DNA of 64,000 bases from a virus. Taxonomy: Duplodnaviria; Heunggongvirae; Uroviricota; Caudoviricetes. The stretch lies in the IMG/VR virus record IMGVR_UViG_3300044796_000656, one strand, 5' to 3'. The notes beneath the pieces are model-generated. The model was given only the letters and a program-made list of their open reading frames with translations. It was not told the DNA's origin and did not search any database. The translations under genes were made by a program, and so were the position numbers. Shown here one piece after another: positions 2,940-53,685 of the stretch (position 1 is the first letter of the stretch; every line of letters starts with the position of its first letter).

Positions 2940-3404
2940 GTGGCAACGAACGCAGTTGTATTAAACGAACCTCAAGAGGTCGCCATCAAGAAGACCTCGT
3001 TCTGGAGCCGCATGCCTCTAGTGGGTGCGCTCAACCGCAGTATGAACCGCCGCGACTTCGAATCGCAGGTATCGAAGATCGTCAATTCGGCACTGGGCCA
3101 TGAATCCGAAGGCCTGGTTGCTGGAAGCGACGAGTACAAGCGCCTGTGGAATATAGCGGATAAGCTCCTGGTCACGTATTGCAAAGACTGGGAGGTTGAT
3201 CGAGCTGACCTGGAAGCGCAGATACCCGCCATTCGTAAGATGAAGTTGCTCGCCAATCCATTACAGTCCGACGGCAAGCCTAAGGTTACAGTTGGCAAAG
3301 CGATCGCTGCACTCATCGGCGTCTGCTTCGGATTACTGGTTCTCGGCGCCGCCGCCGGTATGTTCAACGTCGGCTATCAATTAGCCCATCATCTTGTGAA
3401 GTGA
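2940..3404 (+). CDS. hypothetical protein with C-terminal transmembrane helix
   Basis: GTG start 4 nt after GGAGG. C-terminal hydrophobic stretch IGVCFGLLVLGAAAGMF. Confidence 0.55.
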   Translation: MATNAVVLNEPQEVAIKKTSFWSRMPLVGALNRSMNRRDFESQVSKIVNSALGHESEGLVAGSDEYKRLWNIADKLLVTYCKDWEVDRADLEAQIPAIRKMKLLANPLQSDGKPKVTVGKAIAALIGVCFGLLVLGAAAGMFNVGYQLAHHLVK

Positions 3405-3411
3405 GGAAACA

Positions 3412-3720
3412 ATGCCCCGGCTATTCAAAAACTCTTGCGCGAACCTGCTCGCGTACGCCTGCGTGCCTGTCGCGCTCTGGCTATTGCTTACGCGCTGCTG
3501 GCACACCAACACAGGCAGTCCTATCACCGTGACCGAGACGGCAGTCGATGTCAAGTCACCTCTCAAGGTCTGCAAGATCGTCTGTCTCGATTGCGGCGCC
3601 AGTGCCGATTACGATCCTTTGGAGTTCAGAGTAACGACACCTTGGGAAAAGGTCCGGCCCGTGGCCAAGAAAGAGATCAAGCCCCATGTTTATTCCAACG
3701 CTCGTTGCAACGCTAATTAA
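3412..3720 (+). CDS. small hypothetical protein with N-terminal hydrophobic segment
   Basis: 102-aa ORF with hydrophobic N-terminal segment. Confidence 0.45.
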   Translation: MPRLFKNSCANLLAYACVPVALWLLLTRCWHTNTGSPITVTETAVDVKSPLKVCKIVCLDCGASADYDPLEFRVTTPWEKVRPVAKKEIKPHVYSNARCNAN

Positions 3721-4021
3721 CGCGACGGAAGTCGGCGGGTTCATCGGCTTTCTGAAGTGGAAGAAGTATCAGCAAGTCAAAGACGATCTCTATTCCAGGC
3801 ACAAGCGACCGCGCGAGATCAAGATCGTAGATACCCAGGTCCGCCGGCTGATTGGCAGTCCCACGAAGTTTCAGAAGATGGCAGCCATGCGCGCCGCTGC
3901 GCTGGCTCGTCTGGCCGTGAACACCAAGGCTTTCGAGTTGCTGCTGCAAGGTCTGCTCAATCCCAAATCTCGGCTTCGCCGGGACAAGAATCGACTCAAG
4001 GAGGTGGAAGTAACTCTATGA
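3686..4021 (+). CDS. hypothetical membrane-anchored protein
   Basis: 111-aa ORF with N-terminal hydrophobic segment. Overlaps neighbours by a few codons. Confidence 0.45.
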   Translation: MFIPTLVATLINATEVGGFIGFLKWKKYQQVKDDLYSRHKRPREIKIVDTQVRRLIGSPTKFQKMAAMRAAALARLAVNTKAFELLLQGLLNPKSRLRRDKNRLKEVEVTL

Positions 4022-4296
4022 AAAAGTACAGCTATCAAGCCCTGCTCGATCACCTGGGCGCAGAGATGTGCTCGGCGATGCGCTGGGTGTCGTACCTGTT
4101 CACTGCCTACATGTGGCTATGTGGGCTGCTCGCGCCGATCGCGGAGTACGCCTACGTTGGCCCATGGAAGTTCTACAAGCTCTGGCAGAGGATGATCTTC
4201 AGCCTCGGCATGTTCACCGGCGGATACGGTTTGTTCCGCATGGGCCAGAGCTTCAAGACCTCGAAGGAGAAGATCTTCACGGTCCACGCCGCGTAA
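4018..4296 (+). CDS. hypothetical membrane protein
   Basis: Internal ATG (MKKYSY) of the listed 3757..4296 frame with stop/start overlap ATGA. Two hydrophobic helices. Confidence 0.5.
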   Translation: MKKYSYQALLDHLGAEMCSAMRWVSYLFTAYMWLCGLLAPIAEYAYVGPWKFYKLWQRMIFSLGMFTGGYGLFRMGQSFKTSKEKIFTVHAA

Positions 4297-4311
4297 ATCA
4301 ATCAACAGGAG

Positions 4312-4731
4312 GTGCCGCATGCACGCCATTGTTATCTGGGGCTGCTTTCTAGCGGCTCTGTTTTATTACGACGGCAGAAAGAAGAAACAGCCATGACCCT
4401 GACTCCGAGCGCGACATCGAGTGCCGCCGCCGGCTTTACGTTTTACGGTATGGTCTGGCTGGCGCTGATGGAGCTGGATGACCTGGCCAAGATACTGCAC
4501 ATCAGTTCCTGGGTTAAATCCCGATCCGTGCTGCGCTGGATCATCGAACACAAGTCCGTGGCTCTGATCTGCACGGAATGCTTTAACTATTCAGTCCACG
4601 GCATCACCCAGAGCATCGCCGTGACATTCGCTCTCGGTGGAACCGCGTGCAATGCGCTGATGATCTGGGCAGTGTTGCCAGTCCTCAACAAGATTCGCGG
4701 CCCCAGGTGGCTTTATGGAGGCCTGAAGTGA
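4312..4731 (+). CDS. hypothetical membrane protein
   Basis: Hydrophobic segments. Alternative start at 4393. Confidence 0.45.
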   Translation: MPHARHCYLGLLSSGSVLLRRQKEETAMTLTPSATSSAAAGFTFYGMVWLALMELDDLAKILHISSWVKSRSVLRWIIEHKSVALICTECFNYSVHGITQSIAVTFALGGTACNALMIWAVLPVLNKIRGPRWLYGGLK

Positions 4732-4901
4732 CAATACTGAAACCCGTTTTAGTATGGATCGCAGTTGTGATCCTCGGCGTAACAGCAATCTGGGAATTCC
4801 TGAAGTCTCTCTCGGAGATGCACGAGACGTATTGCAGGTACAGAGAGATACGCCAGAACCGAACGCACACCGAACCGACTCCATTCCACAACCAGCGGTA
4901 G
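4728..4901 (+). CDS. small membrane protein
   Basis: GTG overlapping the previous stop (GTGA). One TM helix. Followed by a terminator. Confidence 0.35.
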   Translation: MTILKPVLVWIAVVILGVTAIWEFLKSLSEMHETYCRYREIRQNRTHTEPTPFHNQR

Positions 4902-5988: not shown

Positions 5989-6483
5989 ATGAACATTCAA
6001 GCCCTAATGAACCTTCCTGGTGAAATCGGCCGGATCAAATGGCTCAGGAGCAACTTTCCCAGCATGACCCAAGGCCAGATCCGGCGACACTTGGAGGACA
6101 TCGCGGATGCCCTGGAGCCGATGCGGTTCATGCATCAAGATCAGATCCGCCTGGAGAAGTTCCACGACACTCTGATAACGGTCATAACAGCCGTGCAGGA
6201 TGTCAACAAGAACTACCGCGGCCGGCCAACGGAGATCAAGCGGGAGTATCTGGAAGGCCGCTATCCCAAGCAAATCGCCAACCTGGCCATGATCCTGATC
6301 GGCCAGGAGATCTGTGAGTTTTACGAGCAGCTCTGGAAATCAACCGATGTGACCAAAGTTGCCCAGGTCGAGTTTAATAACGCTCCGACCGTATTACACA
6401 ATCCAACCACAACGGTAGAAAGCGTCACAGCTTTTCAAGGCGTCTTTCTGGAGCCGCAGGCCGGACTGGAGCACCGAGTATGA
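5989..6483 (+). CDS. hypothetical protein
   Basis: ATG (MNIQALMN) two nt after the upstream stop. 165 aa. Confidence 0.55.
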   Translation: MNIQALMNLPGEIGRIKWLRSNFPSMTQGQIRRHLEDIADALEPMRFMHQDQIRLEKFHDTLITVITAVQDVNKNYRGRPTEIKREYLEGRYPKQIANLAMILIGQEICEFYEQLWKSTDVTKVAQVEFNNAPTVLHNPTTTVESVTAFQGVFLEPQAGLEHRV

Positions 6484-6629
6484 AGCAGCGCCTTCAGCTT
6501 TCAAGCATCCTGAGACCGTTGGAGAATTACGTCTTCGGTTTCATCTCAGCGACCGACCTTAAGGCACTTCCGACTATCGAGCGTTACGCTGAGAATGCTC
6601 GGATGCGGCGCAAGATGTTCGGCAGTTAG
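6480..6629 (+). CDS. small hypothetical protein (49 aa)
   Basis: ATGA overlap with the upstream gene. Not in the ORF track because it is under 60 aa. Confidence 0.3.
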   Translation: MKQRLQLSSILRPLENYVFGFISATDLKALPTIERYAENARMRRKMFGS

Positions 6630-6637
6630 GAGATCCT

Positions 6638-6850
6638 GTGGCATACGAGTACGTAAAAACCTTCTACAACGTCAAGCCGATCATTGGTCAACGAGTGACC
6701 CTGAAAGGTACCACGCGCCAGGGAGTTATTAGTCGCAAGCGACACTATGACATGTACGTTCATGTGAAGTTTGACGGCAGTAAAGTCAGTGTTCCCTGTC
6801 ATCCCCTGGAACTCATTTATGAAGAACAGGTGGAAGGAGTGACGCCATGA
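6638..6850 (+). CDS. hypothetical protein
   Basis: GGAG RBS. 70 aa. Confidence 0.45.
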   Translation: MAYEYVKTFYNVKPIIGQRVTLKGTTRQGVISRKRHYDMYVHVKFDGSKVSVPCHPLELIYEEQVEGVTP

Positions 6851-7005
6851 TGACCTGCAAGTGGTGCGATGGTCCATTAAGAGATCAGGCTGGCACTCAG
6901 TGCGACAACTGCTGGGAAGTTATTTGCCGTGTTCGTTATATGCCTGCTGATCTGATCGAGAAGATACTACGCGGCTTGGGTTTCCAAGCGCGGGTAATGA
7001 AGTGA
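6847..7005 (+). CDS. small Cys-rich protein (CxxC..CxxC)
   Basis: ATGA overlap. Translation reads MMTCKWCDG...CDNCW. Confidence 0.3.
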   Translation: MMTCKWCDGPLRDQAGTQCDNCWEVICRVRYMPADLIEKILRGLGFQARVMK

Positions 7006-7012
7006 GGCATCA

Positions 7013-8626
7013 ATGACTTTCTGGAAGCGAATCACGAAGTTTGCCAACTGTCTGGTTGGCACGGCGGCGCTAGTCGCTCGCGACAACTTCGTTGATGTCG
7101 CGATGGCGCTCACTATGCCGCAGGTCAATAACAAGTTGCAGTTGATGTTCCCACCCCGGCCGCAGAGCGCGTTCTTATCACAGCGCCTCGCGGCCCGGAC
7201 GGTGGACGGAGCCGTACTCGAAGGCCAGGAAGGCTGGCAGAAGCTGGCCATCAGGAAGGGCCTGCCTGATTCTAATACAAAGGAGAAGCGCCTTGGGATT
7301 GAAAACGAACCGCACCGAGTCGATGGCTTCTCGGGCAAGATTGAAGAAGGCTACGGCAAGGGCACGAAGCAGTTGCTCACTGATGAAACAGTCGTGGTCA
7401 AGGTCAACGGACAGACACGCTTTGCTCGTCTCAACTACCATCAACACGATGCAGAACGGGCGGGCCTTCATTACGACCTTGTCGTTGAAGGAGTTCGTCC
7501 AGGAACTCCTAAATGGGAACTGCACGTTCCCCGAGGAGATTACAAAGGACGCTACGCATTCATTCAAACTCCCCGAGGCATGCTGATCAACCTCATGCGG
7601 GATCATGGTGAGCAGTTTGCCAAGCCCGCGATGACGTTGAAAGATGAAGCATTCCTGGATTATGTGCAGGCCAATCGAAGCCTGTACGACATCACCGGCA
7701 AAAAAGATGGTGCGTCTGCTTCAGTAACGATCGCTAATTATCGTGCCCACTTCCGTTCCCATCGGGACGGCGGCCAGACTTACTATGACCGGCTGCCTGA
7801 ACTGGAATTCATCAACAATCGAGCGCCGTTCATGCTGTACCGGAAGTTGTTCCCCGGCCCCGGTCAGAATGGCACGAAGTTGGTTGGCGAACTAGTTCAT
7901 CTCGATGGCGCCGCGCGCCAGGGCGGCATTCTGAATTCGTTGCCCGATAAGGCCGTTAAGATCCAGATCGAGCGCGGCCACAGCGAATTCTACGCCTGGG
8001 ACATCGAACGATTCCGAGGGCGCGACCTGTCTCGTATGTCGTTCGCAAAGCGTGAGCGTTACTTGAACGACGCCATTGCTGAGATCGGGCGTTACAACAG
8101 GCACTATCACAGCGTCGAGCATTGCCCGGACAGTATGACTGCCAGGGAGTTCTACGAGTATATCGTTGCCCAGGATCTGCCACACGGTGAGGGCGTGGTC
8201 ATCAAGCCAAAGAACTCGATAGACCGTTCGTGGATCAAGATCAAACGCAGTGACACGATCGATCTGAAAGTCGTCAAGGTCTTGGAAGGCAAGCCTGGAA
8301 CGAAGTACGAAGGTTCTGCCGGTTCTCTGATCGTTGAAGGACCCACGGGCGAACAGGGCAGAGTTGGCAGCTTCCGAGTTGACGACCAGCAGAGGCAGTG
8401 GATCTTCGATAACCAAGATCTCCTGGAAGGTCAGATTGCTGAGATTGAGGCCTTTGAGATGACCGAGCGCGGTGTACCGCGCGCCGGGCGTTTCGTTAGA
8501 TGGCATCCCTCGAAGTCCGAGGGCGCTCTGCTGATGTACGCCGAGACCTTGAGCGGCGGCGAAAGCCGGGAAGCCATGATGAATACTAAGTACGCGCTAA
8601 TTCAAGCAGTTAGGAGAGCCGCGTAA
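7013..8626 (+). CDS. ATP-dependent ligase (nucleotidyltransferase motifs I, IV, V) with an N-terminal domain resembling the LigD 3'-phosphoesterase module
   Basis: Motifs GKKDG (KxDG), EGVVIK and WIKIK. The N-terminal part (LHYDLVVEG...WELHVPRG) resembles the LigD phosphoesterase HYDxRLE / WAVPKGPS motifs. Confidence 0.7.
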   Translation: MTFWKRITKFANCLVGTAALVARDNFVDVAMALTMPQVNNKLQLMFPPRPQSAFLSQRLAARTVDGAVLEGQEGWQKLAIRKGLPDSNTKEKRLGIENEPHRVDGFSGKIEEGYGKGTKQLLTDETVVVKVNGQTRFARLNYHQHDAERAGLHYDLVVEGVRPGTPKWELHVPRGDYKGRYAFIQTPRGMLINLMRDHGEQFAKPAMTLKDEAFLDYVQANRSLYDITGKKDGASASVTIANYRAHFRSHRDGGQTYYDRLPELEFINNRAPFMLYRKLFPGPGQNGTKLVGELVHLDGAARQGGILNSLPDKAVKIQIERGHSEFYAWDIERFRGRDLSRMSFAKRERYLNDAIAEIGRYNRHYHSVEHCPDSMTAREFYEYIVAQDLPHGEGVVIKPKNSIDRSWIKIKRSDTIDLKVVKVLEGKPGTKYEGSAGSLIVEGPTGEQGRVGSFRVDDQQRQWIFDNQDLLEGQIAEIEAFEMTERGVPRAGRFVRWHPSKSEGALLMYAETLSGGESREAMMNTKYALIQAVRRAA

Positions 8627-8883
8627 TGGGAAACAACGCGACCGTAGTAGTTCGGACAGACTCCCTGAGTTCTGTCCTTGAGGACAGTCTTGGTTTCGCA
8701 CAGCATCTTTGGAACGCCGTTCAATCGGCAGGTTGCAGGCACGCTCCGATGGAAGCCGATGCAACCTGTACTGATTGCGGCGTAAAGGTCGGAGGTTACC
8801 ACCACCCAGGATGCGACCAAGAAGAATGCCCTCAGTGTTCCATGCAATTGCAGTGCGACTGCATTCCAACCGAGGAGAACTAA
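8626..8883 (+). CDS. Cys/His-rich small protein
   Basis: Translation contains CTDCG...HHPGCDQEECPQC. Confidence 0.45.
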   Translation: MGNNATVVVRTDSLSSVLEDSLGFAQHLWNAVQSAGCRHAPMEADATCTDCGVKVGGYHHPGCDQEECPQCSMQLQCDCIPTEEN

Positions 8884-8884
8884 C

Positions 8885-10039
8885 TTGGAAACTGAATCCT
8901 GTGTTTTACATTGCGATAAGGGAAGCTCAGATAAGATCTACCAGGCCCAGCTAGTCCCGGAGGGTGCAGGCTGGGTCGTGAAGTATCAATTCGGCCGCCG
9001 GACGCCCGGAACAACCTGCGGCATCAGTGGCATGCAGGTCGGGGAGAAGACGGATCATCCCAGCGTTTACGGATATGCCAAGAAAGTCTACGACGATCTG
9101 ATCGACAAGCAGATCCGCGTCAAGAAGTACCACGTACTCAGCTCGACCAGCGGCGAATCGGCCGATGCAATAGCAGTTCCCAACAAGGTCGCCAGGGAAG
9201 ATTCAGGAATCTGTCCGATGTTGCTGACAGCCATCGACCAGCCGGAACTTCAGAAGCTCGCTTGTAATCCGTCCTGGTGTTTCCAGGAGAAGAAAGACGG
9301 CGAACGCCGACTGCTCAGGAACGACATAACTGGTGTCGTTGCCATCAATCGCAACGGCGAGATCACGACGCTGCTACCGAACATCGAGAAGGTTGCGGAG
9401 GACATTCTCGCCAGCTTCATCATCGACGGCGAAGAAGTAGGCGATCAGGAATTCGCCTTCGATCTTCTGGAACTCGACGGAGTCGATTGGCGGAAGAAGC
9501 CAATGAAGGAACGTTGGCTGAAACTTGCCGGCTTGAATATTCCCCAGGGCAATGCCGGGATCGTTGTCGTCGAGACGGCGTTCACCACTGTCGCCAAGGA
9601 GGAGATGATCATCCGCGCCGAGGTCGAGAAGTGGGAAGGCATCGTCGCCAAGATGGTCAGCGCCCCCTATGAAGAAGGCAGATCCAAGAAAGCCCAGAAG
9701 TTCAAGTTTAAAGCCAGCGGGACCTTCCTGGTGGACAAACAGAACGAAGACAAGAACGGCGTGAAGAAGCGCAGCGTGGCTTTGCTGGTCCACAGCGGCG
9801 AAGGTTACAACTGGCAGCCGGTCGGTAACGTGACGATCCCGGCCAACTTCGAGATCCCGCCTGACGGCTCGTTCGTTGAGATCGAGTATCTGTACGTCAA
9901 GGGCCGCGGTGGGTCTTTGTACCAGCCGGTCTACAAAGGCGTACGCGCGGACATCGGCGGTCCCTTTGGAACCAAGGCCGAGTCGGTCGATACGCTGAAG
10001 TATCGTCAAGGCTCTACCGAAGACGACGAGGAAGCATGA
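8885..10039 (+). CDS. WGR-domain ATP-dependent DNA ligase
   Basis: TTG start. N-terminal W-G-R signature (AGWVVKYQFGRRTPG). Ligase motifs EKKDGER (I), IIDGEEV (III), EGIVAK (IV) and KFKFK (V). Confidence 0.8.
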   Translation: METESCVLHCDKGSSDKIYQAQLVPEGAGWVVKYQFGRRTPGTTCGISGMQVGEKTDHPSVYGYAKKVYDDLIDKQIRVKKYHVLSSTSGESADAIAVPNKVAREDSGICPMLLTAIDQPELQKLACNPSWCFQEKKDGERRLLRNDITGVVAINRNGEITTLLPNIEKVAEDILASFIIDGEEVGDQEFAFDLLELDGVDWRKKPMKERWLKLAGLNIPQGNAGIVVVETAFTTVAKEEMIIRAEVEKWEGIVAKMVSAPYEEGRSKKAQKFKFKASGTFLVDKQNEDKNGVKKRSVALLVHSGEGYNWQPVGNVTIPANFEIPPDGSFVEIEYLYVKGRGGSLYQPVYKGVRADIGGPFGTKAESVDTLKYRQGSTEDDEEA

Positions 10040-10274
10040 GCGAGTCGAATCCTTTTACCGCAGTTGAAAAGGCCCGGGAGAAGTTCAAGCAGTGGGTCGG
10101 GATCGATGGCGATATCCCAGCCGACGAGTTGTATGCCTCATGAGCTTTGAGACCTACGTGGAAGACTGCACTCGCTGTGGGGCCGGCCTGGAAGAGGGCC
10201 TGACTGGTCTCGGAAGATCTGTACGACTTCGAGGATGAAGAAGGCGAAGCCGTGGAAGTCTGAGGTAACCCCCT

Positions 10275-10649
10275 ATGAATAAAGACCTTGCGGCGCGGAT
10301 GAAAGCCGCGCCAAAGGAAATCACCGTCTCTATCATGAGCCACCACATTGGTCTCTATAAGGGTCGGAGATTTGAATTCGATGACAATCCGATCAGCTTT
10401 GCCCTGAAACATGCTGGCTGGATCATGGCCAACATCGGCAGGTTCGAAGCCTATATCGGTGGAGACCAGGGCGGAGTGCCTTATCTTCCGAGCATCGACA
10501 CCTCCGCCCGGATACAACGCTGGATGGAGCACGGAGAGATGGAACCGTTCACTGCCGAGTTCATCCGGCAACCGATTGCAGCTCCCAAGGAGATGCACGG
10601 CCGGGTCGAGATCGGCCGGGACGAGGAGATTGCCGGTGCCTTCTACTAA
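10275..10649 (+). CDS. hypothetical protein
   Basis: 124-aa ORF. Confidence 0.5.
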   Translation: MNKDLAARMKAAPKEITVSIMSHHIGLYKGRRFEFDDNPISFALKHAGWIMANIGRFEAYIGGDQGGVPYLPSIDTSARIQRWMEHGEMEPFTAEFIRQPIAAPKEMHGRVEIGRDEEIAGAFY

Positions 10650-10911
10650 ATCGAAGATCAAACAGTTGCGTTCGCTCGCCGGGGTCGTCGGCAAAGTCGA
10701 GTTCCCCTGCGGCTGTTACGCGCTGGTCGCGCACGGTGGCGTGCAGTTTCGGAAGTTCTGGCCAGGTGTCTCTCACATTGTCGGGCATTGTTGTCCGGAC
10801 TGGAAGAAGCATAAGTACGCACTGGCGGATGCCGAGCGCGATCTCGCCGAACGCCTGAAGGCTTTCATGGCGCCGAAGCGGAAGCAACACAGAGAGCTAC
10901 GCGACCGCTGA
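10639..10911 (+). CDS. hypothetical Cys-containing protein
   Basis: GTG/TTG starts at 10633-10641. Start uncertain. Confidence 0.35.
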   Translation, partial: PSTKSKIKQLRSLAGVVGKVEFPCGCYALVAHGGVQFRKFWPGVSHIVGHCCPDWKKHKYALADAERDLAERLKAFMAPKRKQHRELRDR

Positions 10912-11249: not shown

Positions 11250-11535
11250 TGAAACCAAGATCTTGATCGCGCAGGTCAGCCAGGTAATAACCAACGCGCT
11301 TCAGAATGACGAGAAGATGCTGGAATTATTCCAGCTCGTACGTGACCGTGGCTTTGAGATGACGGTGGCCGCCGAGGTCACCGTCGGACTACATGTGATC
11401 GAAGACTTTGAGCCATCGGAAGCCCCGGCACCCGGCCCAGAACTTGTGACCCCGAAGACGGGAAAGTTACTGAAGTTCTCTCCGCAGGACTCCAAGTTCT
11501 TGAAAACGATGAGGATATCACTCGATGATAAGTAA
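11233..11535 (+). CDS. hypothetical protein
   Basis: 100-aa ORF. Confidence 0.5.
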   Translation: MQEPNNETKILIAQVSQVITNALQNDEKMLELFQLVRDRGFEMTVAAEVTVGLHVIEDFEPSEAPAPGPELVTPKTGKLLKFSPQDSKFLKTMRISLDDK

Positions 11536-12079
11536 AGGAACAATCGGCGTCATAGGTGCTCGAACGCCCGGCCCGGAAGTCGAGTGCGGGATTCACAATC
11601 TCGTAGGCATCCTGCAATCTCGGGGATACACGATCTCAACCGGCCTTGCCGATGGAGTTGACCAGGCCGCCGCATTTGCCGCGTATCCTGGCCCGCTTGA
11701 GTTGTTCCTACCCTGGGACGGCTACGAAGCCGAAGCACTGCGGGAATTGCTGCAAGTCAATCCCAATATCACGGTCACGATCTACGATCCAAAGATTCAT
11801 CAAGCCTGGACAGACTCAGTCCTACGTTATCACCCAGCAGGGAATCGTCTGCGCCGCGGCGCTTTCGCGCTGCATGCTCGCAACTTCCCCATCGTTGAGA
11901 ACCGCAGGTTGGTCGTTGCTTTCCCCAGCGATAAGCCAGGAGGAGGCGGGACCGGACAGGGTATTCGTATCTGCACGGCTCTCAAGATTCCTCTGATAAC
12001 GCGCGTCGTTGGCGCTCCGGGATGGGACTTCGAAGAACTGACCAAAGCAGTGCTGTTGGAACTGGAAGGTGCGGCATGA
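11525..12079 (+). CDS. DprA/Smf-like (SLOG superfamily) Rossmann-fold protein
   Basis: TGLADGVDQAAAFAA and GGGGTGQGIRICTALKIPLIT match the DprA/LOG family glycine-rich motifs. Confidence 0.55.
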   Translation: MISKGTIGVIGARTPGPEVECGIHNLVGILQSRGYTISTGLADGVDQAAAFAAYPGPLELFLPWDGYEAEALRELLQVNPNITVTIYDPKIHQAWTDSVLRYHPAGNRLRRGAFALHARNFPIVENRRLVVAFPSDKPGGGGTGQGIRICTALKIPLITRVVGAPGWDFEELTKAVLLELEGAA

Positions 12080-12925: not shown

Positions 12926-13405
12926 ATGAAACGCTGGATATTGACAGACACGCATTGGAATCATGAAGCGATGATCACGCGTGGCTGGCGGCCAGCAAAT
13001 TATCAAGAGCGAAGCCTGGCGAATATCCGCAGACTGGTAGCACCGGAAGACAAAGTCCTTCACCTTGGAGATGTAATCTTCGCGCGGTCGGCGGAATTGC
13101 AGGCGATTCTTTTGAGCTTGCCAGGGATTTGGGAGCTGGTCAAGGGAAACCACGATCATCGCCGGGATCAATGGTATCGGGACATGGGTTTCGCAGCCGT
13201 TAACGATGCAGCAGTAATCGGTGACGTTTATCTGACGCATGAGCCCGCAGGCTGTTTGCTGCGGGATACCAGGCTCAACGTTCACGGGCATCTGCATGAC
13301 GATCTGCACCGGGTTGAAGAAGGTTATCCCGAACCGTGGCATAGACTACTTGCCTTAGAACTGACCGATTATTGTCCGGTCCTGTTCGACGAATTCACAA
13401 GGTAG
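12926..13405 (+). CDS. calcineurin-like metallophosphoesterase
   Basis: Motifs DTHWNH, GDVIFAR, GNHDH and GHLHDD. Confidence 0.7.
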   Translation: MKRWILTDTHWNHEAMITRGWRPANYQERSLANIRRLVAPEDKVLHLGDVIFARSAELQAILLSLPGIWELVKGNHDHRRDQWYRDMGFAAVNDAAVIGDVYLTHEPAGCLLRDTRLNVHGHLHDDLHRVEEGYPEPWHRLLALELTDYCPVLFDEFTR

Positions 13406-15320: not shown

Positions 15321-16334
15321 ATGAGTTTAGGACCACAAGCAAGCCTACTTGACATGACTCTGAAAGAGCAACACGCCAAGTATCTAGCAGCCGGACTTGT
15401 TTGCGACCTCTGGGATCGTCTGAACTTCCCAAGGGGAACCCAGTTAATCAAGCAAGCTCAAGACCATGGGTTTGATCTTCCCCAGGAAGTCATTCACATC
15501 TTCTGCGGCGGCTCTAACCTCCACGGCGCCAAAGACGATTCAGGGAAAAGCGATCTGGATATCTGCGGGATCTTCGTTGAACCCCCGGAGCTGGCGCTCG
15601 GGATCGACCGCGATGAGCACTTCATCTCGAAGACCGCGGCCGAAGGCGAACGCAATCAGTCCGGCGATAAAGACTTTACCATCTATTCGCTGCGCAAGTG
15701 GGCGGCTATGGCCTGCAATGGCAATCCCAACGCGCCGCTGTTCCTGTTCGCCCCCGTCGATCCCAAAGGCCAAACAACGGTCTGGGATGCCTATATACGT
15801 CCTAGCGCACATCTGTTCCTGGCCAAGACCACCCTGGTAGGGGATTACGCCAAAAGCGGCCTCTTGGGCTTCGCCAAGGGCATCTGGAAGCGCGCGGAGG
15901 CGGCGCTACGAGGCAAGGAATACCACGAAGCCGGAGGCTTCCTTGGATTTGCCCGCAACATGCTTTACAGGATGCAGGGCAAGCGCGGCCGGGGCAAGAA
16001 GGGGCAGCGGCCGGAACTGGAACTGAAGTTCGGCTACGACACCAAGGCGGCGATGCACATGATCCGCGCCATGTTTGAAGCCATTGAACTGGTCGAGACC
16101 GGGAAACTTGCGTTTCCTAATCGTCAGGTCGAAACCCTGAAGGCGATACGGCGCGGCGAGTGGTCAAAGACTGTCGTTGAGCAGTACTTCGAACAACTCG
16201 AAAGCGAACTGAAGAAACTGGTGCGAAAGTCTGACCTGCGCAAGGAAATTGATCGCGCGGCGGTTTCGAAGCTGGTATCTCGGGCGTACCTCGCCCATTG
16301 GAGACAACGTGAATTCTTTAAGCGTTCTCAATAG
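15321..16334 (+). CDS. Pol-beta superfamily nucleotidyltransferase
   Basis: CGGSNLHG-x8-SDLDICGIF matches the h[GS]x...[DE]h[DE]h nucleotidyltransferase signature. C-terminal helical region. Confidence 0.6.
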   Translation: MSLGPQASLLDMTLKEQHAKYLAAGLVCDLWDRLNFPRGTQLIKQAQDHGFDLPQEVIHIFCGGSNLHGAKDDSGKSDLDICGIFVEPPELALGIDRDEHFISKTAAEGERNQSGDKDFTIYSLRKWAAMACNGNPNAPLFLFAPVDPKGQTTVWDAYIRPSAHLFLAKTTLVGDYAKSGLLGFAKGIWKRAEAALRGKEYHEAGGFLGFARNMLYRMQGKRGRGKKGQRPELELKFGYDTKAAMHMIRAMFEAIELVETGKLAFPNRQVETLKAIRRGEWSKTVVEQYFEQLESELKKLVRKSDLRKEIDRAAVSKLVSRAYLAHWRQREFFKRSQ

Positions 16335-19313: not shown

Positions 19314-20555
19314 ATGAGCCAATTTGACGTCATCGACGCCGAGGACGGCAAGATCATCAAGATCTGGGCACGCGGCGTCCAGGTCGAAGACAAGGCAATC
19401 GAGCAGCTCAAGAAGACCGCGTCTTTGCCTTTTATCTATCGCTGGGTTGCTGCCATGCCGGATTCTCACTGGGGTATGGGCGCGACCATTGGTTCGGTTG
19501 TCGCAACCAAGGGTGCGATTATCCCCGCAGCAGTCGGCGTGGACATCGGATGTGGCATGATGGCCGTGAAGTTGAATCTGACACTCGGCGACCTGGGGAA
19601 CATCGCTCTTGGTACGTTGAGGGCTGCGATCGAAAAAGCAGTTCCAACCGGCCGGACGAACAATGGCGATCGCAAGTCAGATCGTGGTGGCTGGCAAAAC
19701 GTACCAGATGCTGTGGATCACATTTGGTGCCGAGACTTATCAACAGACTTTGCAGATATCCTCGAAGCGAATCCAGGTGCTAAGCCGATGAACGATGTAA
19801 ATCACCTGGCTACACTGGGAACCGGTAATCATTTCATCGAGTTGGTCTACGATGAAACCGGTCAACTTTGGGTCATGTTGCATTCTGGATCGCGCGGCCC
19901 GGGGAACAAGTTCGGTGTCTACTTTGTGAAGTTGGCGAAGGAGATATGCAAACGCTGGTTCATTCAGCTCCCTGATCCTGATCTTGCGTACATCCCGGAG
20001 GGAACTCCTGAGTACGCCCGCTACATGAAGGCGTTGCACTGGTCGATGAAGTTCGCCTGGCACAATCGGATACTTATGATGGAACGCATCATTGCTGGTC
20101 TTCAGCAGGTGATTCCAAGTCTCGATACCAGGGATGAATCGGTCCACTGCCATCACAACTACGCCGCGATGGAGAAGCATTACGGCCAGGAAGTCATGGT
20201 TACGCGCAAAGGGGCCGTGCGCGCCCAGCGCGACGAGCTGGGGATCATCCCAGGGTCGATGGGTACTCGCAGCTACATCGTGCGCGGGAAGGGCTGCCAG
20301 GACTCATTCCAGTCGTGTTCTCACGGCGCCGGCCGCGCCATGGGGCGCAAGGAAGCCCTGAAGCGGTTTACCCTCGAAGACCATATCAAGGCTACCGAGG
20401 GAATCGAGTGCGCGAAGGACGTTTCCGTTTTGGATGAGACGCCCCTTGCGTATAAAGATATAGACAGCGTGATGGCGGCGCAGACAGACCTCGTCGAGAT
20501 CGTGCATACGTTCAAACAGCTTATCTGCGTCAAAGGCGCAGGGGATGGAGAATAG
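19314..20555 (+). CDS. rtcB: RtcB-family RNA 3'-phosphate/5'-OH ligase
   Basis: Motifs MPDSHWGMG, VGVDIGCGM, GTGNHFIEL, HSGSRGPG and CSHGAGR. Confidence 0.85.
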   Translation: MSQFDVIDAEDGKIIKIWARGVQVEDKAIEQLKKTASLPFIYRWVAAMPDSHWGMGATIGSVVATKGAIIPAAVGVDIGCGMMAVKLNLTLGDLGNIALGTLRAAIEKAVPTGRTNNGDRKSDRGGWQNVPDAVDHIWCRDLSTDFADILEANPGAKPMNDVNHLATLGTGNHFIELVYDETGQLWVMLHSGSRGPGNKFGVYFVKLAKEICKRWFIQLPDPDLAYIPEGTPEYARYMKALHWSMKFAWHNRILMMERIIAGLQQVIPSLDTRDESVHCHHNYAAMEKHYGQEVMVTRKGAVRAQRDELGIIPGSMGTRSYIVRGKGCQDSFQSCSHGAGRAMGRKEALKRFTLEDHIKATEGIECAKDVSVLDETPLAYKDIDSVMAAQTDLVEIVHTFKQLICVKGAGDGE

Positions 20556-21004
20556 TCGGTGCCAATCTACGGCGGTGGCCCGGCGACTTCCTGGACGTGC
20601 AAGCACTGTGCGGGCGTGATGCGTCTCCAATCGGCGACGCCTGTATGTGGAACACATCGGCTTGCCGGGACTGGAAACGATACACGGATAAGGACTTCAA
20701 CGTAGGTCACCTATACTAACCTTAGATGATCTGCAAGTTACATCGACGGCAATCCCCTAACCGGGATGACGGTCCTAGTCAGGGACGCCGTTCTTGAGGT
20801 TCGCGGCTGACTAACGTGGTCAGCGTAGTAGCTGCGGGTACAGGGGAGCCTCAGGGAGGCGTAGAACCCGAGGCCCCAGTGCGAACCAAGAGTTATGCAG
20901 GTGAGCGGTGCAATACCTGTCACGGTGACGTGGCGGGCGGCTTTACCCGGAGGACTCGAACCTGAGTCGGCTGCCGGACCCGACCGCGAATCTGCTCCTG
21001 ATTT

Positions 21005-21076
21005 CATAACGCTCGTGAAAAGACCAGCATTAGTTGGCATTTTCGGACAGGGGTTCGACCCCCCTCATCTCCACCA
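21005..21076 (+). ncRNA. ssrA: tmRNA acceptor piece (T-arm, 3' acceptor strand, discriminator A and CCA) of a circularly permuted ssrA
   Basis: GGAC-AGGGG-TTCGACC-CCCCT-CATCTCC-A-CCA, closely parallel to the E. coli tmRNA 3' end GGACGCGGGUUCAACUCCCGCCAGCUCCACCA. The 5' boundary is uncertain. Confidence 0.55.
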
Positions 21077-21100
21077 TGATTCTCCCGTTGTTCACTATAC

Positions 21101-21385
21101 GGGGATGTCACGGCTTCGACGGAAATGGACAATAGATGTGGACGAGCCGGATGGCGTGGCCACCGTGGCGCAAGCTGACCCCAGTCGGTAACGACGGGGT
21201 ACAACGGACACGCAGACGATCAAGTGCCAAAAACACTGTCGCCGTCAAGGTCAATGTCACGGTTTTCCCGGCTCGCCGGGCGGCCCTGGCAATGGAACTT
21301 GCCGCCTAGTCTTCGGACTAGGAGGGGCTAAGGACTGAAGCCTTTTAATCCAAGGGGGACCGATGGCGGTCCCCCACAGTTCACT
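21101..21385 (+). ncRNA. ssrA: tmRNA coding piece (5' acceptor strand GGGGATG, tag reading frame ending ...ALAMELAA-TAG at 21307..21309, stop codon inside a hairpin)
   Basis: GGGGATG-TCACGG-CTTCGACGG resembles the tmRNA 5' end GGGGCUGAUUCUGGAUUCGACGGG. GGGGATG pairs perfectly with CATCTCC 24 nt upstream and includes a G3-U70 wobble. The tag frame ends LAA. The 3' end is a strong 9-bp hairpin at 21353..21379. Confidence 0.55.
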
Positions 21386-21401
21386 CTGAGGATATGTATC
21401 C

Positions 21402-50027: not shown

Positions 50028-51467
50028 GTGCCCGTGGCCAAGAAAACAGGCGCTCCAAAAGCGCCCAGGATCAAGAAGCCTCGGAAGTCTAAGTCTTATG
50101 CTCCCCGGCGCGCACAGGTCTCCGGGGTTCACAGTGTTGCGATCGAGGAAGAAGTCCCAGTCCCTTATTGGGTTGTGGGAAGTTCCGACTGGATCGACAA
50201 CTGGTTTGATCTCGATGCGCTTCCCGAGGGGAGGGTACTGCGAGTTTCTTCGCCCGGGGATCTTGGCCAGATCAAGGAGGAACTTTCCAAAGAGCCCATA
50301 CATACGCTGGATACCGAAACCGGCCAGGATGTAAACACGCGTGCGGACGCCAGTGAGTTCGACAAGGTATGGGGAATGGAACCCTGGATGCCTACGTCTC
50401 AGGTGCTAATGGCGCAGTATGGCACCGCGCGTCGGCCGCTGATTCTCGAACCCCGGTTACTGGGAGAGTTGCGTTGCTTCCTGGAATCGGACCAGTTCTT
50501 GAAAATCCTTCAAAACTCAGTGTTCGATTTCAAGTTTTTACTGAAAAAGCACGCTGTCCATCTGGTGCGCATTTACGACACCATGCTTGCCGAACAGGTC
50601 TTGACCGCCGGCCGACCGGGTCTGAAGGTCACATTGCTGGATCTGGCAAGACGTTACGCGCCATACCGGATCATCCGAAAGGATGTCCGTGATGAGTTTG
50701 TGACGTTCAAGATCGGTATCCAGAAGTTCTCCAAAGAGATGACTGATTACTCAGGGCGAGACATAGTCTTGCCGCCCGATATTATGGCCGGCCAGGTCCC
50801 TGAGCTTCGCAAATGGAAGTTGGAAGACGTTGCCAAGGCGGAGTTCGAATGTGTCCCCTGCACGGCGGAGATGGAGCTTTTCGGGGTCCACCTGGACGGT
50901 GACATTCTCGAACTGGCGCTTACTGCTTACCGGGAAGATGACATTGAGTTGCGCGAGAAGATCATGGCTGCCGTGGGTTCGTCCTTAGCAGATGCCGGTC
51001 ACTCTATGGGCCTGTTCGGCCAGGAGGGATTCTCGTTCGATCTGAAGTCAATCCCCGAACGCCTGCGGATCTTCCGGGATCTGTTGGGTTTCGACATGGA
51101 AGACGCTACGCGCGAGTCCATGTTGAATATCCCGCACGAAGCCGCCCAGGACATCGCCAAGTGGACAGCAGTAGATAAAGTCCTAACCACGTATGGCGAC
51201 GGTCTGATCAAGAAGATCTCACCGTACGATGGCAGATTCCATCCGAGGTTTAGTCAGCTCGGACTGGGCGACCAGGAAGCCCGGAGCGGTAAGAAGACCA
51301 ACATCGCCACCGGACGTTACTCCTCGAACTTCCAGCAATTACCGAAACCCATCGAACGCTTTGCCAAGGTCGCTGACCTGGGCGAGCAGGGCATGATCAA
51401 TGCCACGTTCGAAGCGCAGATCGCGCAGATACGTCAGCAGAGGGGATTGCTACATGCCGCAGCCTAG
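50028..51467 (+). CDS. DNA polymerase I family, N-terminal fragment (3'-5' exonuclease and thumb), ending just before motif A
   Basis: Exo I LDTETG. TGRYSSNFQQLPKP aligns with the TGRLSS..PNLQNIP element. Ends with a stop codon. Confidence 0.75.
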   Translation: MPVAKKTGAPKAPRIKKPRKSKSYAPRRAQVSGVHSVAIEEEVPVPYWVVGSSDWIDNWFDLDALPEGRVLRVSSPGDLGQIKEELSKEPIHTLDTETGQDVNTRADASEFDKVWGMEPWMPTSQVLMAQYGTARRPLILEPRLLGELRCFLESDQFLKILQNSVFDFKFLLKKHAVHLVRIYDTMLAEQVLTAGRPGLKVTLLDLARRYAPYRIIRKDVRDEFVTFKIGIQKFSKEMTDYSGRDIVLPPDIMAGQVPELRKWKLEDVAKAEFECVPCTAEMELFGVHLDGDILELALTAYREDDIELREKIMAAVGSSLADAGHSMGLFGQEGFSFDLKSIPERLRIFRDLLGFDMEDATRESMLNIPHEAAQDIAKWTAVDKVLTTYGDGLIKKISPYDGRFHPRFSQLGLGDQEARSGKKTNIATGRYSSNFQQLPKPIERFAKVADLGEQGMINATFEAQIAQIRQQRGLLHAAA

Positions 51468-51840
51468 CCAGGAAGTAAAGGTCGGCCAGATCTGGAAGGA
51501 CAACGACCGACGGGAGAAACACCGTCTGGTCCGTGTGGAGTCAATCGACGGTCGGTTTGCGGTTTGCGTTTGTACTACGGGAAACCAGCCAAACCGCAGG
51601 TATCGAATCCAACTTTCCAGGTTCAGACCGATTTCCACCGGATACGTTTTTTGGGGGGATGCTGACGGAGTGGAACTAAAGATAGATAAACGCTACGTCT
51701 TCGGGATCTACATTCCCGAAGGTGGTGATCCGAACGCCATTCCGGTCCTGGAACGTGTGCAAATCAGGGCTCCCGTGATTCATAGCCAAAGTGAATCCGA
51801 TGAAGGTTCTGTAGCAGGAGACAACCATGTCGCAAGCTAA
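51456..51840 (+). CDS. hypothetical protein (insertion ORF 1)
   Basis: ATG overlapping the end of the upstream fragment. 128 aa. Confidence 0.45.
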
Positions 51841-52258
51841 CCAGCAGGTATTCAGGTCGGTTGTAGTTCGTTCCTCAGAAATTGAGGACGAGACGCTCAG
51901 GGAACAGATCGACGGTCGGATGATGTCCTACGAGCAGGCGCTGATGGAGGAATCCTCGGCGCAGTTAGACGTCGAACGCGCGACGGCGAAGTTGCTGCGT
52001 GCCCGGGCCTCGCGTATGGAGTCCCGCGCGGCGGTGCAGGAGTCGTTCGGCAAGGGGGATTCCAGAGTCGCGATGGAACCAAATCCATGGGAGCCCTTCA
52101 GAGATAACAGGGGAGGTGTCTGCATCGAGAACTTCCTGTCGCAGCGAGACCAGCGGAACATGATGCGCGCTCAGAAAGCCAACATGAACCGCCAGGTCGA
52201 GCAGATGACCGAGGGAAACCACGGGGACATGTTCGAGCACGGAAATAACGAATCATGA
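51827..52258 (+). CDS. hypothetical protein (insertion ORF 2)
   Basis: 143 aa. Confidence 0.45.
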   Translation: MSQANQQVFRSVVVRSSEIEDETLREQIDGRMMSYEQALMEESSAQLDVERATAKLLRARASRMESRAAVQESFGKGDSRVAMEPNPWEPFRDNRGGVCIENFLSQRDQRNMMRAQKANMNRQVEQMTEGNHGDMFEHGNNES

Positions 52259-52671
52259 ACATGCAGGCATCGTTATTCGACCCGGCACCGGAGCCTGAAG
52301 TACCGGTGCCTTCTTTTTCCCTGAGTCCTAAGGAAGTCAAGGCCGTCAAGATTGCCAAGCCTCCAGCGCCTGAGATGACCGTGATCCCTGCGCGACCGTT
52401 TCATCCATCTCAGAAACTCGACCTGCCTGCTTGGTTGCGCAAGCACAAGTACGACCTGATTCTTTGTGAACTGGTGGTGCGTGCCAAGACTATCGAGGCT
52501 AACCACCTGCATACCGAAGGGTCTGAGGCTGAGTTGAAGTATCTCCTTGAAGCCTACGGAGGAGACGAGACGCTACTCCGCGCCGATGTCGTGGATACCG
52601 CGCAGTATATCCAGCGGCACCACATGCAGGCAGCAGCTCACAGAACAACCGAAGAAACGAGTCTGACCTAA
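52255..52671 (+). CDS. hypothetical protein with N-terminal QASLF peptide (insertion ORF 3)
   Basis: MNMQASLFDPAPEPEVPVP. Confidence 0.5.
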   Translation: MNMQASLFDPAPEPEVPVPSFSLSPKEVKAVKIAKPPAPEMTVIPARPFHPSQKLDLPAWLRKHKYDLILCELVVRAKTIEANHLHTEGSEAELKYLLEAYGGDETLLRADVVDTAQYIQRHHMQAAAHRTTEETSLT

Positions 52672-53685
52672 ATGGGCACGCAAGCAATGCTGTTCGACTC
52701 TCTGGAGGTGGCGCCGCCGCCGGCTATTGTGACGGCTGGAGCTGGGATCACAGTCAGTACGAAGCCGGTATTCATTGCGACCGTTGATGGCAAATCGTAT
52801 TACCTCGACCTTGATCCCAAGTCCCCGACGTTTAACCAGACGATCTGGAAGGTGCCGGATATCCGTGATGCAGTCACAGCCGAACCCGGCTACCAGATTG
52901 TCGCCAGCGATTATTCGCAGATCGAAATTCGCATCATGGCCTTTCTGTCGAAAGATCCGTGGCTCATTGCCGCGATCAACTCGAAGAAGGACATGCACTG
53001 CTACATGGCAACGGATGTCTTCGGTGAGGAGATGGGCTTCACGTATGAAGACATCGCCGCGGCCACGAAGGGTGAAGATCGAAATTCGCATCCGCGCCAT
53101 AAGGAACTGAACGACGTTCGCAACAATATCAAGCGGACCTCGTTTGGAATCCCCTACGGCGTATCGCCCATTGGACTTTCGTACCTGATCAACAAAGACG
53201 AGAAGTTCGCCGCCATGTTGATGGCCCGCTTCTTTGGGAAAGCCAAAGAGTTAAAGCGTTGGCTTGAAAACCAGGGCGACTTCGCGATCCGGTATGGCTA
53301 CACCTCGACCCTGTTGGGCCGCAAGCGGTTCTATCCAATCCCCTCGCCGGAAGATCCGCGCGCCGAGGAAATGCTTTCTCAGATCCGCCGTTGGAGTGGT
53401 AACCATCCTGTCCAGGGTTCGAACGCCGACATGTTAAAGCTGGCGCTTAACAAGTTGTATCTGGACGTACGTGATGGCGTGTACACCAATCCGGCTAAGT
53501 GGGGAACCCGCCTGTTGTTCGTGGTTCACGATGAAATCGTTGCGACCTGTGAGACCGAACATGCTCCCAAACTGAAAGTAGTTGTGGAGAATGCGATGGA
53601 CTGGGCATACGAACGGCTGATCGGATCGAACAACGTTTATCACAAATCAAAGGCCGTCATCGCCGATGTATGGGCGAAGGCATAA
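52672..53685 (+). CDS. DNA polymerase I family, C-terminal catalytic fragment (motifs A, B, C) with N-terminal QAMLF peptide
   Basis: Motif A DYSQIEIRIMAF. Motif B RNNIKRTSFGIPYG. Motif C VVHDEIV. Has its own ATG and begins MGTQAMLFDSLEVAPPP. Confidence 0.8.
   Translation: MGTQAMLFDSLEVAPPPAIVTAGAGITVSTKPVFIATVDGKSYYLDLDPKSPTFNQTIWKVPDIRDAVTAEPGYQIVASDYSQIEIRIMAFLSKDPWLIAAINSKKDMHCYMATDVFGEEMGFTYEDIAAATKGEDRNSHPRHKELNDVRNNIKRTSFGIPYGVSPIGLSYLINKDEKFAAMLMARFFGKAKELKRWLENQGDFAIRYGYTSTLLGRKRFYPIPSPEDPRAEEMLSQIRRWSGNHPVQGSNADMLKLALNKLYLDVRDGVYTNPAKWGTRLLFVVHDEIVATCETEHAPKLKVVVENAMDWAYERLIGSNNVYHKSKAVIADVWAKA

Follow-up and report, generated by a model that had tools for sequence, protein, structure and literature searches.

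The stretch of DNA analysed here, called the window throughout, comprises 64,000 nucleotides (nt) of a virus of the class Caudoviricetes (IMG/VR record IMGVR_UViG_3300044796_000656). It coincides exactly with a section of a 96-kb JGI metagenome contig and plainly comes from the genome of a large, uncultured tailed phage. Positions 7013–10039 carry two ATP-dependent ligases, designated A and B, separated by a short open reading frame (ORF) for a Cys/His-rich protein of 85 amino acids (aa). A preliminary description of this DNA had recognized the two adjacent ligases, and had assigned to A an N-terminal domain resembling the 3′-phosphoesterase (PE) of LigD and to B an N-terminal WGR domain. These assignments are borne out by the analysis: complete ligase motifs are present in both ORFs, and the two accessory domains are supported by profile searches as well as by structure. 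In addition, the PE-like domain of A proved to be rearranged, with the β-hairpin that carries its metal ligands located in the middle of the domain rather than at its beginning. The gene structures, domain folds, motif conservation, PE rearrangement, and distribution described below were established directly. The features of the locus are listed here in the order of the proteins.

7013–8626, plus strand: ligase A gene (ORF A), 537 aa; helix, rearranged PE barrel, nucleotidyltransferase, OB_2.
7013–7147, plus strand: N-terminal helix of A, residues 1–45 (AlphaFold2 (AF2) helix at residues 2–45; predicted local distance difference test score (pLDDT) about 77–93).
7199–7597, plus strand: PE-like β-barrel domain of A, residues ~63–195.
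7412–7489, plus strand: transposed metal-binding β-hairpin of A, residues 134–159 (NYH143-Q-H145...H153-Y-D155).
7625–8257, plus strand: adenylation domain of A, residues ~205–415 (PF01068 and PF09414 over residues 227–411).
8300–8512, plus strand: OB_2-type OB domain of A, residues ~430–500 (PF14743 over residues 430–497).
8626–8883, plus strand: Cys/His-rich ORF, 85 aa, between ORFs A and B.
8885–10039, plus strand: ligase B gene (ORF B), 384 aa; WGR, flexible linker, LigD/LigC-like nucleotidyltransferase, small OB.
8894–9154, plus strand: WGR domain of B, residues ~4–90 (F36-G37-R38-R39 in place of W-G-R; low-confidence linker at residues 91–109).
9218–9964, plus strand: adenylation and OB domains of B, residues ~112–360 (1vs0, 6e-13; NHEJ_ligase_lig).

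The three genes are tightly packed. The ATG of ORF A is preceded, 5 nt upstream, by a GAGG site; the ATG of the 85-aa ORF overlaps the stop codon of A (TAATG), and a single nucleotide separates the stop codon of this ORF from the TTG codon with which B begins. TTG 8885 is taken as the true start of B, since a GAGGAG Shine-Dalgarno site lies 7 nt upstream of it and homologues cover the frame opened by this codon to 99%. The JGI gene call for B, only 353 aa long, begins at an internal GTG and leaves out 31 residues from the start of the WGR domain (8885–8977), which probably adds to such proteins being labelled only as 'LigD'. A scan of positions 6300–10800 for promoter and terminator consensus sequences was uninformative, with counts at or below shuffle expectation and none between the cassette genes above it. 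A, the 85-aa ORF, and B probably form one co-translated cassette.

The catalytic core of A passes the curated cut-offs of three Pfam families, PF01068 (26.8 bits, cut-off 26.2), PF09414 (27.5 bits, cut-off 27), and PF14743 (29.8 bits, cut-off 28), and the protein matches PHROG 114, 'ATP-dependent DNA ligase', at 2.5e-30. Motifs I (K230-K-D232-G233), III (E293), IV (E393-G394), and V (K409, K411) are all present, and every residue listed is invariant in an alignment of A with 61 homologues (62/62). Motif VI (R490...F494...H498) has an invariant arginine and near-invariant Phe and His in the same sequences, and the PF14743 model is matched by 55 of the 62. When a profile of the A family was compared with the PDB, 43 matches were obtained, none of which is an RNA ligase. 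The best (9fzx, 1e-16) is the DNA ligase of Rhizobium phage P10VF bound to nicked DNA, the OB region of which matches A at the same value, followed by the ligase of P. marinus (6rar, 1.7e-11), whereas archaeal, LigE (6gdr), Chlorella virus, and Lig1 ligases are found further down. On the LigD profiles A scores far below the cut-offs (TIGR02779, 31.8 bits against 227; TIGR02776, 23.6 bits against 373). Judged by these comparisons, the core of A is of the T4/P. marinus/Rhizobium phage P10VF type, not of the LigD type. The P10VF and P. marinus enzymes, both of phage or phage-like origin and both established nick sealers, are the closest relatives of the adenylation and OB_2 core of A. Ligases of this type start with an α-helical DNA-binding domain that encircles the duplex, whereas A has a helix and a PE-like barrel in its place.

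An AF2 model of residues 1–225 of A (mean pLDDT 88) consists of a 44-residue helix followed by an all-β domain that spans residues ~60–195. The sequence of the first 45 residues is poorly conserved, the family consensus being mostly 'x'. Residues ~63–195 form an eight-stranded antiparallel β-barrel with the PE fold. The profile of the A family matches the crystal structure of a PE (3p43), and the Pfam model of this domain (PF13298) is matched by 23 of the 62 A homologues at E ≤ 0.01. On ligase A itself, the corresponding TIGR02777 match is weak (15.9 bits with a cut-off of 144, E 0.008, residues 69–121).

The order of the structural elements in this barrel differs from that of a canonical PE. 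In PaePE, the N-terminal hairpin, made of β1 (carrying His42) and β2 (His48, Asp50, and Arg52), is followed by β3, β4 (His84), β5, a helix, and β6 to β8, and one face of the barrel is common to β1, β2, and β5 (PMC3300020). A does not have this order with the hairpin at the N terminus. The block 'PKGLP...LAIENEPH101...GYGKG', equivalent to β3–β5, stands first; the homologue of the β1–β2 hairpin, 'NYH143xH145DA..AGLH153YD155', comes only after the equivalent of β5 (AF2 strands 117–131, 134–147, and 151–158), and the equivalents of β6–β8, 'FE.NIPRG..KGRYAF...MKD', are last. The inversion is also seen when a profile limited to the PE domain of the A family is aligned with four PE chains from the PDB, as profile positions 27–69 correspond to chain residues ~45–88 and positions 90–107 to residues ~23–38. 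Seven canonical stand-alone PE proteins, recovered from a library of 1.84 billion proteins, served as a comparison set. Against these, native A yields two high-scoring segment pairs (HSPs) in inverted order, one for the core block (32–45 bits) and one for the hairpin (23–32 bits). A de-permuted version of A, in which residues 134–159 were placed before residue 65, yields a single collinear HSP of 48–70 bits extending over up to 136 residues; since its E-values refer to a set of only seven subject sequences, the gain of 16–29 bits is the meaningful figure.

The simplest description consistent with these alignments is that the β1–β2 hairpin has been transposed into the connection between β5 and β6, replacing the helix found there in canonical PEs. 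The topology suggests that the transposed hairpin can still pair with β5, rebuilding the β5–β1–β2 face. A tandem internal duplication of the PE domain was considered and rejected, as an hhalign comparison of residues 55–133 with residues 134–200 gave an E-value of 0.11 and a probability of 0.5%. A Foldseek search of the viral models in BFVD with the N-terminal model of A returned no match at E ≤ 0.001. Neither a permuted PE domain nor a phage fusion of a PE with a ligase was found in the literature searched, to which the fusion of a hairpin-transposed PE with a T4-like ligase appears to be new.

The residues that form the active site of canonical PEs are, for the most part, conserved in A. His145, His153, and Asp155, corresponding to His42, His48, and Asp50 of PaePE, are invariant (62/62), and His101, corresponding to His84, is found in 61 of the 62 sequences; the motifs that contain the metal ligands and the phosphate-binding histidine agree with the canonical 'KHEAKRAGLHYD' and 'RLAIE.E.H'. 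His143 is also invariant, Glu97 and Asn98 nearly so, and Tyr114, Lys119, Lys130, and Arg180 are conserved to a similar degree, the last three without exception. Such conservation of His and Asp residues in a family with ~40% identity speaks for a site for metal and phosphate that has been preserved, and against a purely structural role of the domain.

Several observations weigh against a functional PE in A. The model PF13298 does not match ligase A at E ≤ 1, and the curated cut-offs of neither PF13298 nor TIGR02777 are reached by the protein from the window. The arginine located two residues after the Asp, which is essential in PaePE (Arg52), CkoPE, and MbaPE, has no counterpart at the equivalent position 157, occupied in the 62 sequences by Val (46), Ala (11), Cys (4), or Leu (1) and never by Arg or Lys. 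The segment that contains Tyr88 in canonical enzymes is two residues shorter (H101-R-V-D-G-F compared with H-P-L-D-Y-A-D-F), leaving no aligned Tyr. Moreover, the placement of His101 next to the transposed hairpin in three dimensions follows from the topology only. With two of the six canonical essential residues not where they would be expected, the PE module could lack activity or have another specificity. Arg-to-Ala mutants of CkoPE and MbaPE keep no more than 1.6–6% of the activity (1.6% in CkoPE R19A). Tyr88, which follows His84 in canonical PE, is needed mainly for the monoesterase reaction, and its position also varies in several canonical stand-alone PEs. Position 62 of A is Lys or Arg in 51 of the 62 sequences and belongs to a vestigial turn before β3, 'R-T-V-D-G', that is spaced like the 'R-I-S-D-G' of one canonical PE. 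We can speculate that this residue replaces the lost Arg; more generally, Lys119, Lys130, Arg180, or the basic residue 62 could stand in for it.

The absence of Arg52 and the shortened Tyr88 segment would also be expected if the module were catalytically dead and acted as a DNA-binding domain. Such a role would be in keeping with its location, which is exactly that of the DNA-binding domain in related ligases, and with the binding of primer-template DNA by canonical PE (PMC3300020). For a structural domain, however, the invariance of His143, His145, His153, and Asp155, together with the near-invariance of His101, Glu97, and Asn98 at a mean identity of ~40%, is hard to explain, and the other conserved basic residues could take over the role of Arg. 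We regard a dead module as possible but doubtful; an active end-healing domain, perhaps with altered specificity, seems only somewhat more likely on the pattern of conservation, and the margin is not large.

Ligase B is built on a different core. It is recognized by PF01068 (46.4 bits with a cut-off of 26.2, 4.8e-12) and, below the curated cut-off, by the NCBIfam model NHEJ_ligase_lig (TIGR02779; 6.9e-18, 64.9 bits against 227), and all 56 members of the B family match PF01068, the best at 1.3e-17. Its motifs are I (K136-x-D138-G139), III (D181-G-E183), IIIa (F192-D193), IV (E251-G252...K256), V (K272, K274), and a VI-like R354-x-D356. In the alignment of B with 55 homologues, K136, D138, G139, D181, E183, F192, D193, E251, G252, K256, K272, and R354 are invariant and K274 is present in 55 of the 56 sequences. 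The closest structure to the profile of the B family is the ligase domain of M. tuberculosis LigD (1vs0), followed by Lig4, Lig1, and Lig3. The OB domain is assigned from the sequence pattern together with a partial alignment to TIGR02779, no Pfam OB model matching the C-terminal region. Neither A nor B has a LigD-type core accompanied by a POL domain, and no Ku partner was found among the ORFs scanned.

An alternative raised in the preliminary description, that one of the two proteins might be an mRNA-capping enzyme rather than a ligase, has its only footing in B, where a weak match to PF01331 (E 0.012) is accompanied by matches in 14 of the 56 homologues, the best at 2.3e-6. A GTP-dependent capping enzyme is effectively excluded, both by the score of this match, 15.9 bits with a cut-off of 29.6, and by the structural comparison, since the 47 PDB matches of the B profile contain no capping enzyme; the universal match to PF01068 and that of B to NHEJ_ligase_lig agree with this conclusion.

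Residues ~4–90 of B adopt the WGR fold. The Pfam WGR model (PF05406) does not match B itself at E ≤ 1, which counts against the assignment, while 50 of the 56 full-length B homologues, 38–72% identical to B, do match it. Gly37 and Arg38 are invariant in the family, whereas the position of the Trp is taken by Tyr (32), Phe (21), His (2), or Asn (1). Bacterial ATP-dependent ligases fused to WGR, among them an N-terminal-WGR ligase of P. marinus, have been noted as uncharacterised by Williamson and Leiros (NAR 2020, PMC7470946), so that B adds a phage-encoded member to a class already recognized but not yet studied. The architecture of those ligases (N-terminal WGR, adenylation domain, small OB) is that of B, and no association with Ku is seen in either. 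B differs from them in being encoded by a phage, in being missed by the Pfam WGR model, and in the Phe or Tyr that replaces Trp of W-G-R. In PARP1, PARP2, and PARP3 the WGR domain is joined to an ADP-ribosyltransferase and not, as in B, to a ligase, and the sequence identity is 16–20%; by analogy with these proteins, the WGR domain of B may recognize breaks.

The protein encoded by the 85-aa ORF ends with a module, C.DCG..G.[YF]HHPGCD.E.CP.C...C.C (nt ~8764–8871), that probably binds Zn. In about 1.6 Mb of fetched loci, a search with a hidden Markov model located this module, besides the window, only in two unrelated IMG/VR contigs (L080, 9025–9333, and L082, 8932–9534), in both of which it immediately precedes a B-type ligase; a word-indexed protein search with the whole 85-aa ORF returned only the query itself. 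A conserved partnership with A was rejected, as the genes that follow A in two other loci (L004 and L006) are unrelated to it. Since the module tracks B-type ligases, an occasional partnership of the 85-aa ORF with B is more likely than one with A, and the product of this ORF may assist WGR-ligases as a Zn-binding accessory protein.

The two ligases differ in their distribution. The A family includes at least 130 clusters at 90% identity, with full-length homologues, nearly all of about 530 aa, that are 40–65% identical. A search of 1.84 billion representative proteins with the PE-like domain of A found 45 relatives at E ≤ 1e-3, about 30 of which are likewise fusions of this kind or fragments of such fusions; a match of 974 aa (P0267) is repetitive and coiled-coil-like, and looks like a low-complexity artefact. 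The phage-like contigs that carry A-type ligases range in size from 74 kb to 991 kb. None of 50,697 deposited phage genomes shows the architecture of A; the tblastn matches to 70 of these phages all start at residue 251 or later, and a blastn search of the same records with positions 6500–10500 of the window gave no match. A is the ligase typical of a clade of large phages. The B family, with more than 1000 homologues, is found in contexts resembling plasmids or integrative and conjugative elements and in 73 IMG/VR contigs, and the only deposited phage with a B-like ligase is the cultured jumbo Tunturiibacter phage Tunturi_5 (gp61, 30% identity). The best-supported reading is that B is an accessory ligase, a mobile add-on drawn from the pool of mobile elements.

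The preliminary description had suggested that the two enzymes form a tandem end-healing-plus-sealing system dedicated to break repair. In its fullest form, this would be a system for double-strand breaks resembling non-homologous end joining (NHEJ), in which the PE of A, perhaps with the Cys-rich protein, heals the ends and either ligase seals them. In the window the two genes are indeed adjacent and translationally coupled, the core of B is LigD-like, and the PE of LigD trims 3′-ribonucleotide tracts to the single ribonucleotide preferred by LigD-type ligases (PMC3300020). Both types of ligase are also present together in three distant phage genomes, namely on IMG/VR contigs 3300036881_000188 (loci L020 and L027), 3300050132_000504 (L021 and L028), and 3300037116_000299 (L014 and L029), of 124 to 214 kb, in which the A and B proteins are about 42% and 36% identical to those of the window, respectively. 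In these contigs, however, the two genes lie on the same strand but 38–53 kb apart. No B-type ligase was found within 6–10 kb of A in any of 16 other A loci, some of which are near-duplicates, and no A-type ligase within 10 kb of B in any of 73 viral B loci. Most elements that bear A or B carry just one of the two. The adjacency is specific to this lineage, and A and B are not a conserved operon. Ku, polymerase-primase, and polynucleotide kinase are absent from the ORFs scanned, some small ORFs being outside the scan, and the precomputed JGI Pfam annotation of the locus contains no primase-polymerase or Ku family. A dedicated NHEJ-like pair is consequently very improbable and the suggestion of a tandem system is not upheld, although the recurrent retention of both ligases in the same genomes argues that A and B are not redundant.

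Among the neighbours of A, the most frequent is a DprA-like gene, located 2–6.5 kb from A in 8 of the 16 other loci and present in the window at 11525–12079 on the plus strand (PHROG 768, 2e-15); its recurrence could reflect either a gene order common to related phages or a functional connection. NADAR genes are found near A in four of the 16 loci (L004, 5583–6059; L011, 4933–5397; L020, ~19880–20320; L021, ~20096–20503), directly upstream of A in two of these relatives and within 10 kb in the other two, and L011 also carries genes for NAMPT and PRPP synthetase. No NADAR gene is seen adjoining A in the window. These neighbours may link A to conflict systems centred on ADP-ribose and NAD. B has no universal neighbour: among genuine clusters, a UNG-type glycosylase (7 loci) is the largest, followed by a DUF3150-like gene (6 loci), while an apparent cluster of 31 loci consists of antisense ORFs inside B. 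A gene for a small calcineurin-like metallophosphoesterase lies 3 kb downstream of B (12926–13405, plus strand; PF00149, 6.6e-7; PHROG 547, 1e-23) and could encode a further end-processing enzyme; in the loci fetched from outside this lineage, tblastn found no copy of it close to A or B.

The window also encodes functions related to RNA repair and translation, located downstream of the cassette.

15321–16331, plus strand: RlaP nucleotidyltransferase.
19314–20552, plus strand: RtcB RNA ligase.
21011–21309, plus strand: permuted (two-piece type) tmRNA (Rfam RF04321, 75.6 bits with a gathering score of 47).

Their presence bears on another suggestion of the preliminary description, that one of the two ligases may act on RNA. 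One or both enzymes would then be RNA-repair ligases, with A healing 2′,3′-cyclic or 3′-phosphate RNA ends and sealing them, alongside RtcB and RlaP, against host anticodon nucleases. The RNA_ligase model PF09414 is indeed matched by A marginally above its cut-off (27.5 bits against 27), by 38 of the 62 A homologues, and by 43 of the 56 B homologues, and one A homologue is named 'RNA ligase family protein' by NCBI. Canonical PE prefers 3′-ribonucleotide ends (PMC3300020). RtcB, RlaP, and the permuted tmRNA lie 5–12 kb downstream in the window, and in locus L010 RtcB (3384–4775) is immediately upstream of A; these observations speak against assigning A and B to DNA. On the other hand, both proteins have a C-terminal OB domain with motif VI, as is typical of DNA ligases; the Rnl families are not known to carry a motif-VI OB domain at that C-terminal position. 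Every PDB match of the two family profiles is a DNA ligase, RtcB is found near A in only that one of the 16 other loci, and no 5′-kinase was found among the ORFs scanned. RtcB and RlaP form a separate RNA-repair pair, 5–10 kb downstream of the ligase cassette. Since none of the five ORFs longer than 600 aa in the window encodes an NAD-dependent ligase, A and B are its only candidates for a DNA ligase, and if they acted on RNA the window would contain none. An RNA-repair role is thus quite unlikely and the suggestion has found no positive support. Ranked by likelihood, the alternatives run from a dead PE module, through RNA repair and a dedicated NHEJ-like pair, to a capping enzyme.

The best explanation of the sequence data is that the cassette, located in the early or DNA-metabolism region of the phage genome, encodes two catalytically complete and non-redundant ATP-dependent ligases of the DNA type, each equipped with a different accessory domain. 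We put the probability of this explanation, including the mechanism that follows, at about 0.5, whereas its architectural part alone is highly probable. PE catalysis, action on DNA and not on RNA, a separation of tasks between the two ligases, and a function for the Cys-rich ORF are inferred. In A, the helical DNA-binding domain would have been exchanged for a long helix and a rearranged PE barrel of the LigD type, which would bind the 3′ side of a nick or a primer-template. The metal site formed by His145, His153, and Asp155, together with His101, might then remove a 3′-phosphate or extra 3′-ribonucleotides, after which the core would adenylate the 5′-phosphate and seal the nick, making A a single-polypeptide 'heal-and-seal' enzyme for nicks arising in replication and repair. 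In B, the WGR domain would recognize the broken strand, as the WGR domains of PARPs do on DNA breaks, and, held on a flexible linker, would deliver the minimal ligase core to the nick.

A more specific version of this scheme, tentative and on balance rather unlikely to be correct in all its parts, would make the A family an undescribed class of phage 'heal-and-seal' DNA ligases. Its PE, permuted in a non-circular manner, would have a rebuilt phosphate site, with the Arg lost from β2 and new invariant Lys and Arg residues, and a 3′-cleaning specificity unlike that of LigD. Together with a WGR ligase that senses nicks, and sometimes with a small Zn-module partner, such an enzyme might, in this group of phages, repair phage DNA that has been nicked or 3′-blocked by host defences or by base-excision enzymes.

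Compared with known systems, A is closest in its logic to LigD (PE-LIG-POL, for example PA2138 of Pseudomonas aeruginosa), in which a PE barrel is likewise N-terminal to an ATP-dependent ligase and healing is coupled to sealing. The His/His/Asp metal ligands and the phosphate-binding His of LigD and of the archaeal PEs (CkoPE, 3P4H; MbaPE, 3P43) are kept in A. Unlike LigD, A has a core of the T4/Pmar/OB_2 type, is encoded by a phage, has no POL domain and no Ku among the ORFs scanned, and starts with an extra helix of 45 residues; unlike both LigD and the stand-alone PEs, it has a transposed hairpin and lacks Arg52 and Tyr88 at their canonical positions. Healing of 3′ ends and sealing are also encoded by a phage in the case of the T4 polynucleotide kinase-phosphatase and the T4 ligases, but the healing enzyme of T4 has an unrelated fold (a HAD phosphatase and a P-loop kinase) and is a separate polypeptide, and its 5′-kinase activity has no counterpart among the ORFs scanned here.

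Molecular biology relies heavily on ATP-dependent ligases, and the kinds of damage that these enzymes can repair are set by the accessory domains they carry. The A family represents a sizeable group of phage enzymes in which the end-healing barrel of LigD has been placed on a T4-like core and rearranged, with the metal site kept and the canonical Arg lost, whereas B offers a concrete, clonable representative of the WGR-ligase class. If the PE of A is active, a single small enzyme would both clean and seal 3′-blocked nicks, which could be useful for work with damaged or ancient DNA and for library preparation, and the family would be a natural experiment in the tolerance of a β-barrel active site to transposition of a hairpin. 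If it is inactive, an end-healing enzyme would have been recruited as a DNA-binding domain. In either case, the repeated presence of both types of ligase in single large phage genomes suggests an unstudied division of labour in the maintenance of phage DNA. This is a neat case of structural evolution that overturns nothing known.

Nearly all genes of the window share one strand. Those for replication and DNA metabolism encode a RecD-like helicase, a sliding clamp, ribonucleotide reductase, a split family-A DNA polymerase, a second helicase, and a DNA methyltransferase; dUTPase, thymidylate kinase, and dCMP deaminase serve nucleotide metabolism, and a protein of the UDG superfamily as well as a Rad52/Mgm101-like protein are also present. 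A tRNA-Cys is encoded in the window. The permuted tmRNA was also called by ARAGORN (20984–21400), with the tag peptide AKNTVAVKVNVTVFPARRAALAMELAA, just downstream of RtcB. Permuted tmRNAs typically occur in alpha-proteobacteria and in certain other groups, and the one found here may hint at the host group. The family-A DNA polymerase seems to be split into two parts, at 50028–51467 and 52672–53685 on the plus strand, with small ORFs at 51827–52258 and 52255–52671 between them, which could represent either an intervening mobile element or a true two-subunit arrangement.

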